From assembly GCA_049317385.1 (NCBI GenBank), contig JBMOIJ010000002.1, forward strand, positions 76,581 through 140,580: 64,000 bases of DNA, in the 5' to 3' direction. The DNA comes from Acidimicrobiia bacterium. GTDB taxonomy: Bacteria > Actinomycetota > Acidimicrobiia > IMCC26256 > JBMOIJ01. Shown here piece after piece: positions 18,665 through 25,848 of the stretch. The position numbers and the translations under genes were made by a program. A model generated the notes under the pieces. That model made no database searches, was not told the DNA's origin, and worked only from the letters and a program-made list of their open reading frames with translations. How positions within the stretch are numbered: the stretch's first letter is position 1; each line of letters begins with the position of its first letter.

Positions 18665-18811
18665 CGGGCGAGCAGCGCTCGGGGCGGCCAGCGCCAAGAC
18701 GGCCTTAACGAATAGGCCTTGTGGAGCGTCGACATTCGTAAGACAGTGGGGTTCCCCGTACTAAAGGAACCTTCCTTGCCCGCACCTCGGCACGGTCTAC
18801 CCGCCATGCAC

Positions 18812-18912
18812 GCGCAAGCGCCGCCCGAAGGCGGCGCTCACTAGGTTACCCCGCAGGGCATTGCCTACGAATTTGGAATCTTGTCGGAGCAAGACACCAA
18901 TTCGGGTTTAGT
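18812..18912 (-). ncRNA. tracrRNA (anti-repeat plus structured tail)
   Basis: Positions 18883-18912 are complementary to the repeat at 28 of 30 positions. Both mismatches become G:U wobbles only if crRNA and tracrRNA are minus-strand transcripts. The tail begins AAGAUUCC and ends in a perfect 8-bp GC hairpin with a UUCG loop (18818-18837). The exact ends are uncertain. Confidence 0.65.
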
Positions 18913-18919
18913 GCTCTCT

Positions 18920-18948
18920 GTTCTAACAGCAACACCCCGTTCAAGCAA
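18920..18948 (-). promoter_or_regulatory. putative tracrRNA promoter (TTGCTT - 17 nt - TAGAAC)
   Basis: On the minus strand the -35-like TTGCTT lies at 18948-18943 and the -10-like TAGAAC at 18925-18920. This places a start about 7 nt downstream, where anti-repeat complementarity begins. Confidence 0.35.
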
Positions 18949-19019
18949 GGCTGCACCGGGCGCATGAGCCACAACGAATTGGCGCCCCAAAATCCATGTC
19001 GTCGGAAGGATGCACTGCA

Positions 19020-21992
19020 ATGAAGCGCGTACTCGGACTCGACCTCGGCACCAACTCCATTGGCTGGGCCATTGTCGACGTTCCCGATTCCGATGACGAG
19101 GACGGCGATGTCGTAGCGATGGGGTCACGCATCTTCCCCGCGGGCGCAGAGATCGCAGGATCCAAGACGGAAACACGAGCGAAGGCGCGTCGCATGAAGC
19201 GTGCAATGCGCCGACAAATTGCGCGCCGCTCTCGCCGACGTCAAACCCTTGCCCGCGAACTAGCGCAGGTCGGCCTTCTGCCTGCGAACGATTCGGAATT
19301 CCAAGAACTGATGTCCCAGCAACCCGGCGAGCTACTCGATCGCGCACTGGCCGGCGGTGCGCTCACTGCGCATCAGGTTGGAAGAGTGCTTTATTGGTTT
19401 GCTTCGCGACGAGGGTTTCTCTCGCTGCGCGCTGGCGGGTCGCAGATGGTCGATGGAGACAGCGGGTTCACGCCGGCTCGTTTTCGCCTCTCTCAGTTCG
19501 ATGGCGAGACAGGTGAGCGTGTTCACCAAGGCCAAGAGGACCTCGTCATTGAGTTCGTCCGGTCTCAGATGCCCCATCACCCGGACCTCATCACCGAACA
19601 ACTGCTCTTTGGCACTCAGGGCCGTCAGCAATACCCGGTTCGCCCAATCAAGCGAATTGAGACCGACCCCAAGGATGGCTCAATCCAACGGTTCGGAATA
19701 CATGGTCTGCTGTTCTTCCAACGCAAGGTCTATTGGGACCAAGGAACAGTCGGGCACTGTTCGCTCGATCTAGATTCCCGACAGCGGCGAGCAGCTCGCG
19801 CTGAGCGAATGGCTCAACGCTTCAACGTTTGGCAGACCGTCGTGAACGTGCGTGTGGGCGAGGACCAACGCAGTCTCGCTCTTGCCGAGCGCGCACGGCT
19901 CTTCGATGCGCTCTGGTCGAAGAAGACCATGACCTTCGGCGCAATGCGGAAGCTGCTGAGCCTCAGCCCCGAGACCGCGATCAATTTCGAGCAGGACGAA
20001 ATCAAAGGCTTGAAGGGGAACCAAACAGATCCAGAGCTCAAGAAGGCCCTGAAGACCGAGTGGGAACTCCTGACGGAGGACGAACGAGACCAACTTGTAT
20101 TCCTCCTACTCGGCACGAGCACGGAAGAAGCGACACGGACGCAGCTCTCGGCACGTTTCCACCTAAGCGACGAGGGGTGCGATGCGGCCCTCAAAGTCAA
20201 ACTGCCCACCGGCCGCATGAACTATGGGCGGCGAACAATCGCTCGTCTACTTGAGACCCTGCCAGAAGCGGCAGATCTCCGAGACGCGATCGTTGCTGCC
20301 GGCTTCAAGCCGCCCGAAGAAGCTGTGGCAGCCAAGTCCACGGATCTCCACAAAGTCACCAATCCCTTGGTTCGTTCAACGCTCACCCAGCTCACCAAGG
20401 TGATTGCTGCGTTGCAGCGGAGCTATGAGCGCGCCGATGGGACTGCATTCGACGCTGTGCGCATCGAATTGTCACGCGATGTTTCTGCCTCCGCAAAGCA
20501 GCGCGAAGCGATGGTCAAACAGCAGAATGAGAATCGCCACTCGCGAGAGGCAGCGGTGAAGCTCATCAGCGAGTTTGCGCCGGGCTCCGAGAACAGTCGC
20601 GACGCGCAGCGAAAGGCTCGTCTCTGGCGCGATCAAGGCGAGCAGTGCCTCTACTGTGGCCAGCCCATCTCAGCAGTTGAGCTGTTTACCAATTCAGTTC
20701 AACTCGACCACATCCTGCCGCTTTCCAAGACCAACAACGACAGCCTCGCCAACGTGGCCGTCGTTCACGCAGTGGAGAACCTGGAAAAGAGCAATCAAAC
20801 CCCGTTCGAATGGGCCGGGCCCGACCGTCATGCGGAGCTCGTCGAGCTAGCGAAGTCGATGCGCCTCTCGCGCGCGAAGATGAACAACCTCAAGACACAG
20901 CATGTTGCACCCGATGCGATCCCATCCTCGCTCTTGGTCCAAACGGGTTACATCAATGCCTTGGCACGGACCGCCGTGCGCGATCAGACCGGCATTGAGC
21001 CCGAAATCTCGCGCGGGCGGCTGACCGCCCAGCTGCTCTACCGCATCGGCCTCAAGAAAGATTCAAGCGACCACCGCCGACACGCTCAGGACGCTGCGAT
21101 CATCGCGATTACGGATACGCGCCTCGCACTGAAGCTCGCCAAGCGATACGCAGCGGAGCGCGACTACGGGAATCAGCGGAGCGATGACTGGGGAGCCTGG
21201 GAACCATGGACCGGCTTCCGGGCGGAGGTGCTCGCCAAGTACGAAACGATCTTCGTTTCGCATCGGCCGAGCCGAAAGGTTCGAGGGCAACTCCACGAAG
21301 AAACGTTCTATGGAAAGGTCACGTCGCCAGGAAGCGATTCACCAACTCTCTATGCGCGGCGGCGCCAGCTCACGGGCGGGCTCACCGGCACCCAGATGGG
21401 GCAGGTAGCCGACCCTGTCGTTCGAAAGGCACTGATCGACAACCTGGCGGAGCGGGGCCTCGCTACTGATGGCGGATTCAGCCTTGATCCGTCGAATCCA
21501 CCCCGCCTCCCTGATGGCACTGGAATCACAAAGGTTCGCTGCCACATGAACATGCCAGCGAACCGGATCATCCGCCCCACCGATCAACCGAGGACGGGCG
21601 TCTCCCTCGCAAACAACCACGTTGCGTACGTGTTCCGAAACGAGAAGACAGGAAAACAGCGCGTGCACGTGGTGGCCCGCCTCGACGCGATCGCGACCCG
21701 CGCGCTTCCTGCACGGAGCGCGGCAGAGAGTGCCCGCGGCGAGGACGAGGAGTTCTTGTACAGCGTGACTGCAGGAGACCTGTTGCTTCTCAAGAACTCC
21801 AGCCCTGCCGAGCAGCTCGTGAGGGTGGCTCGTCTCGACGAGGGCGGAAAGCGCGTTTATGCCTTTCCGGCGAACAAGGCGATCCAGTCGAAAGAGGAGC
21901 GCCTCCTCCTGACTGGGGACCAGCTCGCTGCGCTGGGCGCAGTCAAGGTAACAGTCCCTCCCGATGGCGAACCTCGCCGAGCGAGCGACTAG
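19020..21992 (+). CDS. cas9: Cas9, compact type II-C-like (about 990 aa)
   Basis: RuvC-I is LGLDLGTNSIGWAIV. The Arg-rich bridge helix is RAKARRMKRAMRRQIARRSRRR. RuvC-II is VRIELSRD. HNH is QLDHILPLS...ENLEKSNQTPFEW. RuvC-III is HRRHAQDAAIIAITD. The ATG at 19020 has GGAAGGA 9 nt upstream. An alternative ATG lies at 18996. Confidence 0.95.
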   Translation: MKRVLGLDLGTNSIGWAIVDVPDSDDEDGDVVAMGSRIFPAGAEIAGSKTETRAKARRMKRAMRRQIARRSRRRQTLARELAQVGLLPANDSEFQELMSQQPGELLDRALAGGALTAHQVGRVLYWFASRRGFLSLRAGGSQMVDGDSGFTPARFRLSQFDGETGERVHQGQEDLVIEFVRSQMPHHPDLITEQLLFGTQGRQQYPVRPIKRIETDPKDGSIQRFGIHGLLFFQRKVYWDQGTVGHCSLDLDSRQRRAARAERMAQRFNVWQTVVNVRVGEDQRSLALAERARLFDALWSKKTMTFGAMRKLLSLSPETAINFEQDEIKGLKGNQTDPELKKALKTEWELLTEDERDQLVFLLLGTSTEEATRTQLSARFHLSDEGCDAALKVKLPTGRMNYGRRTIARLLETLPEAADLRDAIVAAGFKPPEEAVAAKSTDLHKVTNPLVRSTLTQLTKVIAALQRSYERADGTAFDAVRIELSRDVSASAKQREAMVKQQNENRHSREAAVKLISEFAPGSENSRDAQRKARLWRDQGEQCLYCGQPISAVELFTNSVQLDHILPLSKTNNDSLANVAVVHAVENLEKSNQTPFEWAGPDRHAELVELAKSMRLSRAKMNNLKTQHVAPDAIPSSLLVQTGYINALARTAVRDQTGIEPEISRGRLTAQLLYRIGLKKDSSDHRRHAQDAAIIAITDTRLALKLAKRYAAERDYGNQRSDDWGAWEPWTGFRAEVLAKYETIFVSHRPSRKVRGQLHEETFYGKVTSPGSDSPTLYARRRQLTGGLTGTQMGQVADPVVRKALIDNLAERGLATDGGFSLDPSNPPRLPDGTGITKVRCHMNMPANRIIRPTDQPRTGVSLANNHVAYVFRNEKTGKQRVHVVARLDAIATRALPARSAAESARGEDEEFLYSVTAGDLLLLKNSSPAEQLVRVARLDEGGKRVYAFPANKAIQSKEERLLLTGDQLAALGAVKVTVPPDGEPRRASD

Positions 21993-21996
21993 AGCG

Positions 21997-22905
21997 ATGG
22001 GCCGAGCAGTGATCCTGAGCGACCGGATTTCCCGGATCGACGTCAGGGATCATCAGCTCCGCGCCTACCCCAGTGACGGAACGGAAGCGAAGTCCGCACC
22101 TTGCGAAGACATCGACCTGCTTGTTCTCGACACCCATCTGCTGATCGGACTCGATTCACACGTTCTTCAGGAACTTGCTGCTGCGCGCTCGGCGATGCTG
22201 GTCACCAATCGTTCGCACATGCCCTGTGGCATCTTCCTGCCGTTCAGCGCGAACCTGGACCATGGGGCAGTCACGACTGCACAGTTCCAGATGAGCGTGC
22301 CGCGCAAGAAGCGGGCATGGCAGCAAATCGTGCGCCGAAAGATCCGCAACCAATCCGCATTGCTCGAACCGGGTAGCGCCGCTTACCGCAGGCTCCGGCT
22401 TCTTTCGGCAGAGGTCCGCTCGGGTGATTCGAGCAATGCCGAAGCACAGGCGGCCCGCACCTATTGGAAAGCGATGCTCCCAAGCGGCGTGCGCCGCAGT
22501 GCACGTTCTCGCCTCGGCGTCAACGCCGCCCTGGATTATGGATACGCAGTGCTTCGGGCGGCACTCGCACGATCCTGCGTATCGGTAGGGCTGCATGTCG
22601 GCCTTCCGCTCTTCCATTCGAACCTGCGAAATCCATTCGCACTCGTCGACGACCTGGTTGAGCCGTGGCGCCCGTTCGTCGACTCACGTGCTCGTTCGCT
22701 CGGCATCGGAGAAGACGACCTACTCGCTCCACACGATAAGGCTGAACTTGTCGGCGTGCTCCACGAGAGAGTGCAGTGCGGAGGAGTCGAGGGCCCTTTG
22801 ACTGAAGCCATGCTGCGCGCTTCGGCGGCGATGAAGCGCTATGCGTTCGGCGAGGCCGACGAGCTGGACTTGCCCGAAAGCCCGCGCCCGCGTGCTCGCG
22901 AGTGA
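21997..22905 (+). CDS. cas1: Cas1 integrase
   Basis: It starts 5 nt after the cas9 stop and is about 302 aa. The Cas1-like C-terminal region contains NAALDYGYAVLRAALARS and LPLFHSNLRNPFALVDDLVEPWRP. Confidence 0.9.
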   Translation: MGRAVILSDRISRIDVRDHQLRAYPSDGTEAKSAPCEDIDLLVLDTHLLIGLDSHVLQELAAARSAMLVTNRSHMPCGIFLPFSANLDHGAVTTAQFQMSVPRKKRAWQQIVRRKIRNQSALLEPGSAAYRRLRLLSAEVRSGDSSNAEAQAARTYWKAMLPSGVRRSARSRLGVNAALDYGYAVLRAALARSCVSVGLHVGLPLFHSNLRNPFALVDDLVEPWRPFVDSRARSLGIGEDDLLAPHDKAELVGVLHERVQCGGVEGPLTEAMLRASAAMKRYAFGEADELDLPESPRPRARE

Positions 22906-23221
22906 GTTCCGCGCCGTGTGGATGCTCGTGATGTTCGACTTGCCAGTCGGTTCCAAACGAGCGAAGACGGACTATCGACGGTTCCGCGACTTCTTACAGG
23001 ACGACGGCTTCGCAATGCTCCAGTACTCGGTGTACGGCCGGCATTGCGCAACGAGAGAAAGTGCCGACGCCCATGCGGCTCGTGTGCGCTTCGCTTTGCC
23101 GCCAGCAGGCGAAGTACGGATCTTGCGGGTAACCGAGGCGCAGTACGCGCGGATGGAAGTCTTCCGAAATTTCGAGCGACGTCACCCGGAACCCGCACCA
23201 GCGGTGCTCGAATTGTGGTGA
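22892..23221 (+). CDS. cas2: Cas2
   Basis: The motifs MLVMFDLPV, YRRFRDFLQDDGFAMLQYSVY and others are typical of Cas2. The start is ambiguous (GTG 22892, GTG 22916 or ATG 22922). It overlaps the cas1 stop. Confidence 0.85.
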   Translation: MLASEFRAVWMLVMFDLPVGSKRAKTDYRRFRDFLQDDGFAMLQYSVYGRHCATRESADAHAARVRFALPPAGEVRILRVTEAQYARMEVFRNFERRHPEPAPAVLELW

Positions 23222-23266: not shown

Positions 23267-24288
23267 GAGGTTACTAAACCCGAATTGGTGTCCTGCCCCG
23301 ACTGAGAAGTCACCTTCGGAATCGTGAGATGTGAGGTTACTAAACCCGAATTGGTGTCCTGCCCCGACTGTCCTCGTACTTCCTGCTGCCATCCGTAGGA
23401 GGTTACTAAACCCGAATTGGTGTCCTGCCCCGACCGTTTTGTTTGCCACACCGCCCACGGGTGGAGGTTACTAAACCCGAATTGGTGTCCTGCCCCGACT
23501 GGGGGATCGTGGATCGCAACGTCGCCGAAGAGGTTACTAAACCCGAATTGGTGTCCTGCCCCGACACGTTTGTTCATCTAGTGCACCAGCGCCCGGAGGT
23601 TACTAAACCCGAATTGGTGTCCTGCCCCGACGGACTACCCAGGAACTGTTGCGGCACCGGTGAGGTTACTAAACCCGAATTGGTGTCCTGCCCCGACCAT
23701 TCAGCTACCGGTTCGCGCGCCTCGTCGAGGTTACTAAACCCGAATTGGTGTCCTGCCCCGACCCCATGCTGGTTGTTGCCGAGAGTAAGGGCGAGGTTAC
23801 TAAAGCCGAATTGGTGTCCTGCCCCGACGCCGGTTTGGGTGAAGGTGGCGCGCGTGCGAGGTTACTAAACCCGAATTGGTGTCCTGCCCCGACTTCCCAG
23901 ATGCGGCCGTATTCGATGAGTTCGAGGTTACTAAACCCGAATTGGTGTCCTGCCCCGACAGCGAGCCCGAAAGTGGCATCGCCAAGCACGGAGGTTACTA
24001 AACCCGAATTGGTGTCCTGCCCCGACAACGGTACCCGTCGGCGGTGTCGACCTTTGAGGTTACTAAACCCGAATTGGTGTCCTGCCCCGACTCCTGTACC
24101 GCGAAGGTGATGCGCTGGCCGAGGTTACTAAACCCGAATTGGTGTCCTGCCCCGACTAAATCTCGACCGTGCCACCATTGCAGACGGAGGTTACTAAACC
24201 CGAATTGGTGTCCTGCCCCGACCGCAGCTGCGGCGGCAGCGACGACCCGGCGGAGGTTACTAAACCCGAATTGGTGTCCTGCCCCGAC
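23267..24288. CRISPR. CRISPR array: 16 repeats of 36 nt (GAGGTTACTAAACCCGAATTGGTGTCCTGCCCCGAC as written on +) and 15 unique spacers of 29-31 nt
   Basis: Each unit was counted by hand. Repeats start at 23267, 23333, 23399, 23464, 23530, 23596, 23662, 23727, 23793, 23858, 23924, 23991, 24056, 24121, 24187 and 24253. Only repeat 9 differs (C to G at 23805). Transcription is inferred to be on the minus strand from tracrRNA pairing. Confidence 0.97.
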
Positions 24289-24312: not shown

Positions 24313-25848
24313 CTACCCACCCAGCGGGTCGAACGCCTGCACGCCATTTGTTGCGACGTGCGCAGTCCAAGATGCGCCATCCCAAAATCGGTATTCAAAT
24401 CGTTGGAGTGGGTCTCCGTACCAACCTGCTTCTGGCAGCAACTCGTGCACCACGGGCGCCACATCGCTGCGAGAGTCCACGATCTCGGGCACCGCAAGGC
24501 GCGTGCTTGCGCTTTGATCGGTTGAGCATTCAGCGCATCGAAGATCTTTGCGACGCCTCGCCCCTTCGGTAAGAACAACCGCCTTGCCGCACACCGAACA
24601 GAGTTGGACAGTGCGCGGCCGCATGATGGCAGCTTCGCCTGAAACCTCATCGCCCGTGCGAGCAGCAAGGAACGCTTCCGCACCAACAATCGGTATCCCA
24701 TACTTGCGGGCCTTGGTCGCCTTGACACTTGCGGTCTTTGTATCCCCCGCTACGAGAACATCCGTCGTCTTTGTCACGGAAGGCACGGCGACCATTCGCC
24801 ACTCCCACGCATGCTGCTCAAGGACTTCCCGATCAACAAATTCTCCGTTGATGCAAGCTTCGCCCGTGAAACAAACCCGCATCCCCGCTCGCAGTCGAAC
24901 TGCGACATTCGCCCGTCGCGATTGCTCGGTCTTGCGCACAACGAACTCTGAATCCACATCGAGAAGCTGAGCGAACGCAAGTAGCTGTTCGAAGTCCGAC
25001 CCAGCGAATGAGCCCTGTTCCAAGGCGCGGCTCACCAGCGCGCCTATGAATTGCTGATGAGCCGCATGCTGTTGCGTTCGACTAAGGCCCAGCGCACTCG
25101 CAAGGTCGTCGAGTTGCTCTCGTTCGTCGGGCGTAATACGCCAATCCTCGACGACCTCGGAAACGAGATCCAAATATGGCTGCTCATCGACATCGGCGGC
25201 AGAGATCGATACCAGAACCGGCGCATGAGATAGTCCAGCGCCTACGACAGAACGATCGCGTTCGGCTCGCGGGCATATCGCAGCGGAGCCTGGACCGACC
25301 GCGTCAGCCTGGACGGGAATAACTCCGCCCTCATGGTTAGGTCCGATCAGTTGAAATAGCTGGGCGGTCGCGCGCGCGTCATGGAGCGCTGAATGCCAAC
25401 CCCCAAGACTGATGCCGTAAGCAGAGCATGCAACCTGAAGGTTCTCCCCTGCAATGCGCAACGTGTCGATTCCGCGGCCAAGATCGACAACGGGGGTTAC
25501 AACTCGCTCGAACTCGCAACGCAACATCCGCTCGTCGAACCCGAAGAGGTTATGTGCGACGAGGCAAGCGCCGCGAAGACGCGCCGCGACCTGATCGGCG
25601 ATATCCGAGAACATCGGCGCATTCACCACATCGCTTGCGGTGATCCCGTGGACCTTGGTCGGCCCGACATCACGCCCCGGATTCACAAGTGTCGTCCACT
25701 CGTCGACGACACGCCCCACAAGATCGACGGTGACGATCGCGATTTCGACGACACGATCCTTTGATCGCAGCCCAGTCGTCTCGAGATCGATCACCGCAAA
25801 GCGATCACTGTCCCCAGCAACGTGCTCCAGCGTTCTTGCCGTGTTCAA
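24313..25848 (-). CDS. DEDDh (DnaQ-like) 3'-5' exonuclease fused to a BRCT domain, a Cys4 zinc ribbon and a C-terminal DUF2510-like domain
   Basis: Exo motifs are FAVIDLETTG, LVAHNLFGFDERML and HSALHDARAT. The BRCT-like segment is VCFTGE...DVLVAGD...KARKYGIPIV. The zinc ribbon is CSVCGK...CAEC. The DUF2510-like segment is GWYGDPLQRFEYRFWDGASWT. The start codon is TTG at 25848, with a possible alternative GTG downstream. Confidence 0.8.
   Translation of the reverse strand: MNTARTLEHVAGDSDRFAVIDLETTGLRSKDRVVEIAIVTVDLVGRVVDEWTTLVNPGRDVGPTKVHGITASDVVNAPMFSDIADQVAARLRGACLVAHNLFGFDERMLRCEFERVVTPVVDLGRGIDTLRIAGENLQVACSAYGISLGGWHSALHDARATAQLFQLIGPNHEGGVIPVQADAVGPGSAAICPRAERDRSVVGAGLSHAPVLVSISAADVDEQPYLDLVSEVVEDWRITPDEREQLDDLASALGLSRTQQHAAHQQFIGALVSRALEQGSFAGSDFEQLLAFAQLLDVDSEFVVRKTEQSRRANVAVRLRAGMRVCFTGEACINGEFVDREVLEQHAWEWRMVAVPSVTKTTDVLVAGDTKTASVKATKARKYGIPIVGAEAFLAARTGDEVSGEAAIMRPRTVQLCSVCGKAVVLTEGARRRKDLRCAECSTDQSASTRLAVPEIVDSRSDVAPVVHELLPEAGWYGDPLQRFEYRFWDGASWTAHVATNGVQAFDPLGG

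Follow-up and report, generated by a model that had tools for sequence, protein, structure and literature searches.

What is encoded in the gap that precedes cas9 in a 64,000-nucleotide stretch of Acidimicrobiia DNA (contig JBMOIJ010000002.1; the whole stretch is referred to as the window), and from which strand are the guide RNAs of this locus read? The window carries a cas9-cas1-cas2 operon and a CRISPR array, and a short segment complementary to the array repeat lies inside the 355-nucleotide (nt) gap 5' of the operon. We conclude that positions ~18802-18912 of the minus strand very probably encode the trans-activating CRISPR RNA (tracrRNA) of a type II-C cas9-cas1-cas2-array system, transcribed away from cas9, and that the CRISPR RNAs (crRNAs) are, with the same high probability, antisense to the operon. 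This assignment comes from sequence comparison; the exact 5' and 3' ends of the tracrRNA, the use of its promoter and its binding by Cas9 are predictions.

The array repeat reads GAGGTTACTAAACCCGAATTGGTGTCCTGCCCCGAC on the plus strand, and 15 of its 16 copies are identical, the remaining one having a single mismatch. Positions 18883-18912 (plus strand, GTCGGAGCAAGACACCAATTCGGGTTTAGT; minus strand, 5'-ACUAAACCCGAAUUGGUGUCUUGCUCCGAC-3') share 28 of 30 letters with the reverse complement of the repeat, and at each of the two other positions the plus strand has A in place of G. The match is unique in the window and far above chance, the runner-up among ungapped 30-mers agreeing at 19 of 30 positions. 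With both RNAs on the minus strand, the anti-repeat pairs throughout with the repeat's 5' 30 nt, forming 28 Watson-Crick pairs and two G:U wobbles (U in the tracrRNA, G in the crRNA); if both are read from the plus strand, each of the two differences becomes A opposite C. The first-pass annotation of this DNA had described this match and the consequences of its two differences, and all of its statements on the sequence hold, as does the lack of a better anti-repeat within the window. The duplex energies in the two orientations are -58.0 kcal/mol (minus-strand RNAs) and -53.5 kcal/mol (plus-strand RNAs), a gap of 4.5 kcal/mol. It should be noted that two wobbles alone are weak evidence for the strand, and we take them as a hint only.

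Related loci provide a much larger number of informative positions. Contigs of 11 relatives were fetched by exact protein look-up, six further loci came from a scan of JGI metagenomes with a tail-derived pattern, and after removal of near-duplicates 13 distinct loci were available besides the window. All of these loci, with Cas9 proteins 43-53% identical to that of the window, have a homologous RNA gene within about 330 nt 5' of cas9, with a shared order of parts: an anti-repeat, AAGAU, ...CAAUUCG..., GGCNNUGCYC-loop-GGGGYAWCC, and a GC-rich hairpin. For seven loci the repeat is known, and here 35 repeat:anti-repeat differences are G:U pairs under the proposed polarity, compared to two under the opposite one, while the duplex energy favors the proposed polarity by 4.5-20 kcal/mol. 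Therefore, the strand is decided by the comparative G:U counts together with the duplex energies.

The structure of the tail leads to the same strand. Past the anti-repeat, the minus strand reads AAGAUUCC... and includes a perfect hairpin, GCGCCGCC-UUCG-GGCGGCGC, both of which had been pointed out in the first-pass annotation. The minus-strand tail (78 nt) has a folding energy of -37.2 kcal/mol (z = -3.24), which none of 200 shuffles matched, compared to -16.7 kcal/mol (z = +1.0) for the equivalent plus-strand flank, 18913-18990, which has no significant structure and no terminator ahead of cas9. The canonical layout, i.e., a 5' anti-repeat followed by a junction, nexus, stem-loops and terminal hairpin, is found only in the minus-strand reading. 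The RNAalifold consensus of the 14 tails consists of one two-tier stem-loop and an 11-bp terminal hairpin; 98.6% of the 280 pair cells in this alignment are standard pairs, compared to 87.8% in column shuffles (none of 500 as high) and 39-53% in the control with slid partners. Compensatory double changes are seen in 9 of the 20 pairs: stem-loop 1 has two pairs with such changes and keeps its G:U pairs, and the terminal helix has compensatory changes in 7 of its 11 pairs. G:U pairs fill 29 cells altogether; read on the opposite strand, the paired share drops to 88%, and no cell is paired on that strand only.

These data bear on the alternative that the RNAs are read from the plus strand, in which the array would be co-transcribed with cas9-cas1-cas2 and the tracrRNA would run from 18883 toward cas9, the two C:A mismatches being tolerated. 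Such a duplex would still be stable at the energy given above, and CRISPR tools by default assume that the array and the cas genes share a direction (PMC3737331); however, the plus strand turns all 29 G:U pairs of the conserved tail into A:C, the wobbles in the duplex stand 35 to 2 for the minus polarity, and the covariance model of the tail (R1) has no plus-strand match in the window. The tracrRNA does run with cas9 in three related loci (L081-L083), but it pairs there with an antisense crRNA only. We consider plus-strand RNAs most improbable.

The conservation of the tail is also relevant to whether any functional RNA is made from this segment. The stems stay paired via compensatory changes, and therefore selection on an RNA is indicated. 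A different origin could be imagined, namely that the segment is an orphan, a degenerate inverted copy of the repeat (for example, a scar of recombination or what is left of a former array) from which no functional RNA is expressed; recruited repeats are regarded as the source of anti-repeats (PMC6546382), and the promoter and terminator in the window are both sub-consensus. It is very unlikely, however, that a scar of this kind would account for an anti-repeat and an 80-nt structured tail that are kept at the same position across loci with Cas9 proteins as divergent as those compared here, and a type II system needs a tracrRNA, for which the window has no other candidate.

The AA junction is followed by a weak nexus-like hairpin, the closing A:U pair of which is changed to G:C in one relative (L084, AAGG...AUCCG), a compensatory change; clearer nexus hairpins are present in distant relatives, GGAAC-UUUC-GUUCC in L012 and GAAAU-AUCU-AUUUC in L008. 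In the same region, the linker CCAAAUUCG (18864-18882, minus strand) resembles the center of the crRNA repeat, CCAAUUCGG, and consequently can pair with the center of the anti-repeat (18896-18904, minus strand), and a 7-bp linker:anti-repeat helix is possible in most members of the family. We rejected the helix between the CAAUUCG of the linker and the anti-repeat as unsupported (89.3% versus 85.4% in shuffles, 13 of 500 of which reach it), and the double change in L084, which could be taken in favor of this helix, is better explained by the change from A:U to G:C in the nexus stem.

The partial complementarity between CAAUUCG and the anti-repeat center would also fit a regulatory Cas9-associated RNA, either a small CRISPR-Cas-associated RNA (scaRNA) or, comparable to the long form of tracrRNA, a natural single guide, and such RNAs are known in type II loci, e.g., the scaRNA of Neisseria meningitidis (PMC13431127). 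The layout here is canonical from the 5' anti-repeat through the junction, nexus and stem-loops to the terminator, there is one anti-repeat only per locus, and the linker helix is barely above shuffles, its clearest compensatory change fitting the nexus stem better. A regulatory RNA in place of a canonical tracrRNA is, in our judgment, extremely unlikely.

With the tracrRNA assignment, the polarity of the array can be compared across the family. In L081 (5830-5940, plus strand), L082 (same) and L083 (5750-5870, plus strand), the homologous tracrRNA gene has the same position 5' of cas9 and shares its strand; its promoters are TATAAT or TACTAT, and U-rich tracts follow its hairpins (a run of seven U in L081). 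The anti-repeat in these three loci has the same sense as the plus-strand repeat, and therefore the crRNA is antisense to cas9 there too. The tracrRNA gene runs away from cas9 in the window and in all other loci. Comparison of these arrangements suggests that the tracrRNA gene was inverted in one sub-lineage and that the antisense polarity of the array is the constant feature; the position and orientation of tracrRNA genes are known to vary even between close relatives (PMC3737331; summarized in PMC6546382). Thus, the strand-specific G:U pairs and the promoters and terminators of the tracrRNA genes of relatives argue for an array antisense to the cas operon in the window as well.

The first-pass annotation had proposed a minus-strand tracrRNA directed away from cas9, and this proposal is borne out by the homologues, the covariation, the wobble counts, the conserved promoter offsets and the U-tracts of relatives; its prediction of crRNAs antisense to cas9-cas1-cas2 agrees with the evidence on array polarity. 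The idea that one direction applies to the whole RNA module stands for the window, where the tracrRNA and crRNA are both assigned to the minus strand, but not for the family, which has no single module direction owing to the inverted gene in L081-L083. Nor is an antisense array unusual. Published work gives it as the rule for type II-C: in 100% of II-C cases the orientation found by experiment is not the 'Cas orientation' (PMC6737040), and antisense arrays have been shown by RNA-seq for N. meningitidis and Campylobacter jejuni (PMC3737331).

The R1 model matches the window at 18802-18882, on the minus strand only (67.9 bits, E 8.5e-17), and extends the comparison well beyond the close relatives. 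It also matches II-C loci of Planctomycetota, Nitrospiria, Gammaproteobacteria and others, with Cas9 proteins 26-31% identical to that of the window (L001:7207-7284, L073:7727-7820, L012:80-154 and L004:7818-7895, all on the minus strand, as well as L033, L007 and L008). These loci came from a contig profile search with the Cas9 clade alignment, in which the matches listed had at most 31% identity; there were no useful close-clade relatives among the matches listed, and the distant loci later showed the spread of the tail motif. The distant RNAs are always on the strand opposite to cas9 and immediately 5' of it, with canonical promoters, anti-repeats and U-tracts. Together, the tails define a broad class of II-C tracrRNAs that is absent from Rfam, and the window RNA is an unannotated representative of this widespread, uncurated class. 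No publication on a type II system in Acidimicrobiia came up in a literature search.

The putative promoter elements ahead of the anti-repeat have counterparts in the relatives. A TTGnnn hexamer is found about 25-31 nt ahead of the 31-nt anti-repeat segment in 11 of the 13 homologous loci, and a NANNNT hexamer 3-8 nt ahead of it, likewise in 11 of 13; TTGCTT and TAGAAC of the window are at the family offsets, 29 and 6. Among relatives, the promoters TTGCAT-N17-TATAAT (L081) and TTGACA-N17-TACTAT (L083) are seen, the counterparts at the TAGAAC position include TAGAAT (L097) and TAGCCT (L087), and several loci have U-rich runs past the terminal hairpin (U7 in L081, CUUCUCUUUU in L084). It had been claimed that this promoter places the 5' end exactly at the start of pairing. 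The two hexamers are indeed present at conserved offsets, and a 5' end at the start of pairing is plausible as a prediction.

We propose the following scheme. The tracrRNA would be transcribed away from cas9 from the weak promoter TTGCTT-N17-TAGAAC, starting at the anti-repeat or within about 3 nt of it. The 30-nt anti-repeat and the AA junction would come first in it, ahead of a short hairpin resembling a nexus, a stem-loop in two tiers and, at the end, a GC-rich hairpin. The array would be read in the direction opposite to the cas operon. In the minus-strand reading, a crRNA is a spacer followed by GUCGGGGCAGGACACCAAUUCGGG... / GUCGGGGCAGGAC..., and the 5' 30 nt of its repeat portion would pair with the anti-repeat through the 28 Watson-Crick and two G:U pairs described above, the resulting crRNA:tracrRNA dual guide being bound by the 990-amino-acid (aa) Cas9.

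Several observations weigh against this scheme. The wobble evidence of the window itself consists of two positions and about 4.5 kcal/mol. TAGAAC is without the near-invariant final T of the -10 box, and the terminal hairpin is followed by only UU rather than a U-tract. A generic sigma-70 and terminator scan of the window reported neither the promoter nor the hairpin, in the latter case because only UU follows it. No Rfam family matched the RNA at the gathering threshold or at E <= 1. Since the tracrRNA model in Rfam is not known to cover any but Streptococcus-type sequences, such a miss says little about function. No protospacers were found for the arrays of the window and L083 among 50,697 phage genomes or for three 22-mers of window spacers in IMG/VR, and 232 family spacers compared to all collected loci and the window gave chance-level matches only; without protospacers, the evidence on crRNA polarity from the side of the protospacer-adjacent motif is missing.

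The repeats contain a further candidate signal. Every repeat in the window ends with TAACCT on the minus strand (AGGTTA on the plus strand, e.g., 23268-23273), and the motif TANNCT is kept at the crRNA-sense 3' end of the repeat in eight loci, as TAACCT, TAGACT, TACACT or TACGCT. The part of the repeat that bears it is unpaired with the tracrRNA, and the motif is accompanied neither by the TG of an extended -10 element nor by a -35 element. TANNCT may be a -10 box inside the repeat, and a transcription start 6-8 nt past it would yield ~24-nt guides. In C. jejuni, crRNAs are produced from promoters inside the repeats, and RNase III is not needed (PMC8616872; PMC3737331). It is possible, and we suggest it only tentatively, that the 5' ends of the crRNAs are made here by in-repeat promoters, as in Neisseria and Campylobacter; otherwise, they would result from an external promoter or from read-through plus RNase III processing. 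As a separate observation, the sole variant repeat is the ninth (23793-23828), with a C to G change at repeat position 13 (plus strand), which falls in the part that pairs with the tracrRNA and would give that crRNA one mismatch.

The arrays of closely related loci also differ in their spacers. Of the about 46 spacers in L089 and L090, which are near-identical loci, only those numbered 2 and 5 from the cas2 end differ, and L081 and L082 have common flanks, yet 0 of 13 cas2-proximal spacers are in common. Therefore, the turnover is on the cas2-proximal side, downstream with respect to transcription, and new spacers seem to be added to the array on this side, as has been reported for Neisseria and Campylobacter. 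In these two genera, promoters in each repeat reconcile such downstream spacer turnover with expression (PMC8616872). In L084 (10265-10432), the repeat mismatches grow away from cas2 (0, 3, 9). We rejected the degenerate-last-repeat rule, which would predict the plus strand from L084, as an indicator of polarity; the rule gives the wrong direction experimentally for N. meningitidis and C. jejuni (PMC3737331). In the window array all terminal repeats are intact, and degeneracy is uninformative for polarity. A combined scheme can be formulated, in which each repeat carries a minimal TANNCT -10 box without the extended TG of Neisseria, crRNAs are made singly with ~24-nt guides, spacers enter at the cas2-proximal, transcription-downstream end, and the CAAUUCG linker mimics the repeat center and folds back on the anti-repeat in free tracrRNA; taken jointly, these propositions are rather unlikely all to be correct.

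The coordinates of the RNA and of the neighboring genes are collected in Table 1.

Table 1. Features of the type II-C locus, in positions of the window
Feature	Position	Strand	Description
-35-like hexamer TTGCTT	18943..18948	-	Read from the sequence
-10-like hexamer TAGAAC	18920..18925	-	17 nt past the -35-like hexamer; 7 nt ahead of the first paired base, 18912
Predicted tracrRNA, whole	18802..18912	-	About 100-110 nt; ends predicted
Anti-repeat	18883..18912	-	5'-ACUAAACCCGAAUUGGUGUCUUGCUCCGAC-3'; plus strand reads GTCGGAGCAAGACACCAATTCGGGTTTAGT
AA junction (18881-18882), then weak nexus-like hairpin GAUUCCAAAUUC	18869..18882	-	Closed by G:C and A:U
Stem-loop 1, UAGG-CAA-UGCCC-UGCG-GGGGU-A-ACCUA	18842..18867	-	4-bp outer and 5-bp inner helix; RNAalifold consensus of 14 homologues
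3' terminal hairpin, then UUGCG	18814..18841	-	12 bp; perfect 8-bp core at 18818-18837
cas9	19020..21992	+	990 aa, type II-C; start = MKRVLGLDLGTNSIGWA
cas1	21964..22905	+	Type II NMENI class; TIGR03639, E 3.3e-59
cas2	22841..23221	+	TIGR01573, E 2.1e-17, residues 28-112
CRISPR array	23267..24288	- (crRNA strand)	16 repeats of 36 nt, 15 spacers of 29-31 nt

The cas9 product matches TIGR01865 in a profile search (E 2.5e-124) and contains the Pfam domains HNH_4, Cas9_a and RuvC_III; residues D8, D563-H564 and N587 are invariant across the clade alignment. The clade of this Cas9 numbers about 35 relatives, which are 43-53% identical to it. An NCBI protein of the same length (990 aa), annotated as Cas9 of 'MAG: Acidimicrobiia bacterium', is a 100% match. 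All homologues begin at the methionine of MKR/MER..., here at 19020, with GGAAGG just 5' of it; the in-frame ATG at 18996, the start of the mechanically called open reading frame (ORF), was rejected on this ground. The genes cas1 and cas2 are directly 3' of cas9, and the array begins 46 nt past cas2, the true start of which is probably further downstream than in the listed ORF, since that ORF overlaps cas1. Neither csn2 nor cas4 was found beside the cas9-cas1-cas2 operon, and therefore the system is of type II-C, in its standard form (Cas9 with RuvC and HNH, accompanied only by cas1 and cas2). The same gene order is seen in relatives. The nearest solved structure by sequence is that of Nme1Cas9 (phmmer, E 1.2e-45, residues 3-708 only).

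The flanking ORFs encode a BSP-peptidase-like protein and an exonuclease of the RNase_T family. The latter is encoded by a 511-aa ORF at 24313-25848 (minus strand), in which an RNase_T/DEDD exonuclease domain (PF00929, E 9.6e-20) is combined with DUF2510 at the C terminus; 25 nt separate the end of the ORF from the last repeat, and the ORF is directed into the array on the crRNA strand. Read-through from this ORF could contribute to the precursor of the crRNAs; its position is probably coincidental, as it is not seen beside the arrays of relatives. In two relatives, a gene of the rve integrase/transposase family lies 3' of cas1 (L086:6458-8043 and L098:4310-5900), no cas2 was called, and one repeat is left, which suggests that insertion of an insertion sequence (IS) element eroded the adaptation module and the array.

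Among the systems studied experimentally, the II-C system of N. meningitidis (Nme1Cas9; PDB 6JDQ, 8JA0) is similar in its minimal cas9-cas1-cas2 operon, 36-nt repeats, ~30-nt spacers and antisense array, in a tracrRNA with a 5' anti-repeat, an AA junction and a structured 3' tail, and in a repeat that may have a -10 box at its 3' end. It also resembles the present family in that repeat degeneracy and spacer turnover mark the transcription-downstream end, a paradox noted for N. meningitidis and C. jejuni (PMC3737331). Conversely, the window Cas9 is only distantly related to Nme1Cas9, with the partial match given above and a length about 90 aa shorter, the tracrRNA tails are unrelated in sequence, TAACCT in the window lacks the extended TG motif, such that in-repeat promoters are only a candidate here, and the host belongs to a high-GC actinobacterial lineage. 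The C. jejuni system (CjCas9; PDB 5X2G) shares a compact Cas9 and an antisense array; however, its Cas9 is a far weaker match (E 2.8e-15, spanning about 100 residues), the position and fold of the tracrRNA differ, and the organism is AT-rich with canonical -10 boxes.

A comparison to the catalogue of type II tracrRNAs (Chylinski 2013, PMC3737331; Faure 2018, PMC6546382) shows the expected imperfect hybrid, in which the spacer-adjacent last nucleotide of the repeat is paired, an A or AA junction as in II-C, a nexus stem starting with G and a terminal hairpin of the Rho-independent type; an AA junction with a G-initiated stem is typical of II-C (PMC6546382). The variable position and orientation of the catalogued genes are paralleled by L081-L083 versus the remaining loci. 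The differences are that the lower stem in the window starts with G:C and not with the common G:U, that the nexus of the Acidimicrobiia clade is very weak (two closing pairs and one or two A:U pairs), and that the hybrid in the window is an uninterrupted 30-bp duplex of -58 kcal/mol, compared to a II-C median of -39.4 (PMC6546382). The wider II-C branch recovered with R1 (L001, L073, L012, L004, L033, L007 and L008) has the anti-repeat, the AAGA junction, ...UUCG(Y)(R)GGC...GGGGC.ACC and a terminator in common with the window, but its Cas9 proteins are 26-31% identical, its repeats start with GUUG... and not with GUCGGGG, and it has clear nexus hairpins, TATAAT-type promoters and U-tracts.

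With respect to method, the lesson of this locus is that two G:U wobbles may hint at the polarity of a guide RNA pair, while it is the comparative counts of G:U pairs and covariation that decide it. The result is an annotation of the guide RNAs for a compact 990-aa Cas9 of an uncultured high-GC member of Acidimicrobiia, comprising the strand and modules of the tracrRNA and the polarity of the crRNA, and its consequence is a rational design of a single guide RNA, the predicted form of which would be N22-24 + GUCGGGGCAGGACACCAAUUCGGG + GAAA + CCCGAAUUGGUGUCUUGCUCCGAC + AAGAUUCCAAAUUCGUAGGCAAUGCCCUGCGGGGUAACCUAGUGAGCGCCGCCUUCGGGCGGCGCUU. The biology of this family confirms the existing II-C paradigm and does not alter it; the conceptual novelty is low, and the value of the finding is practical, in the design of guide RNAs.

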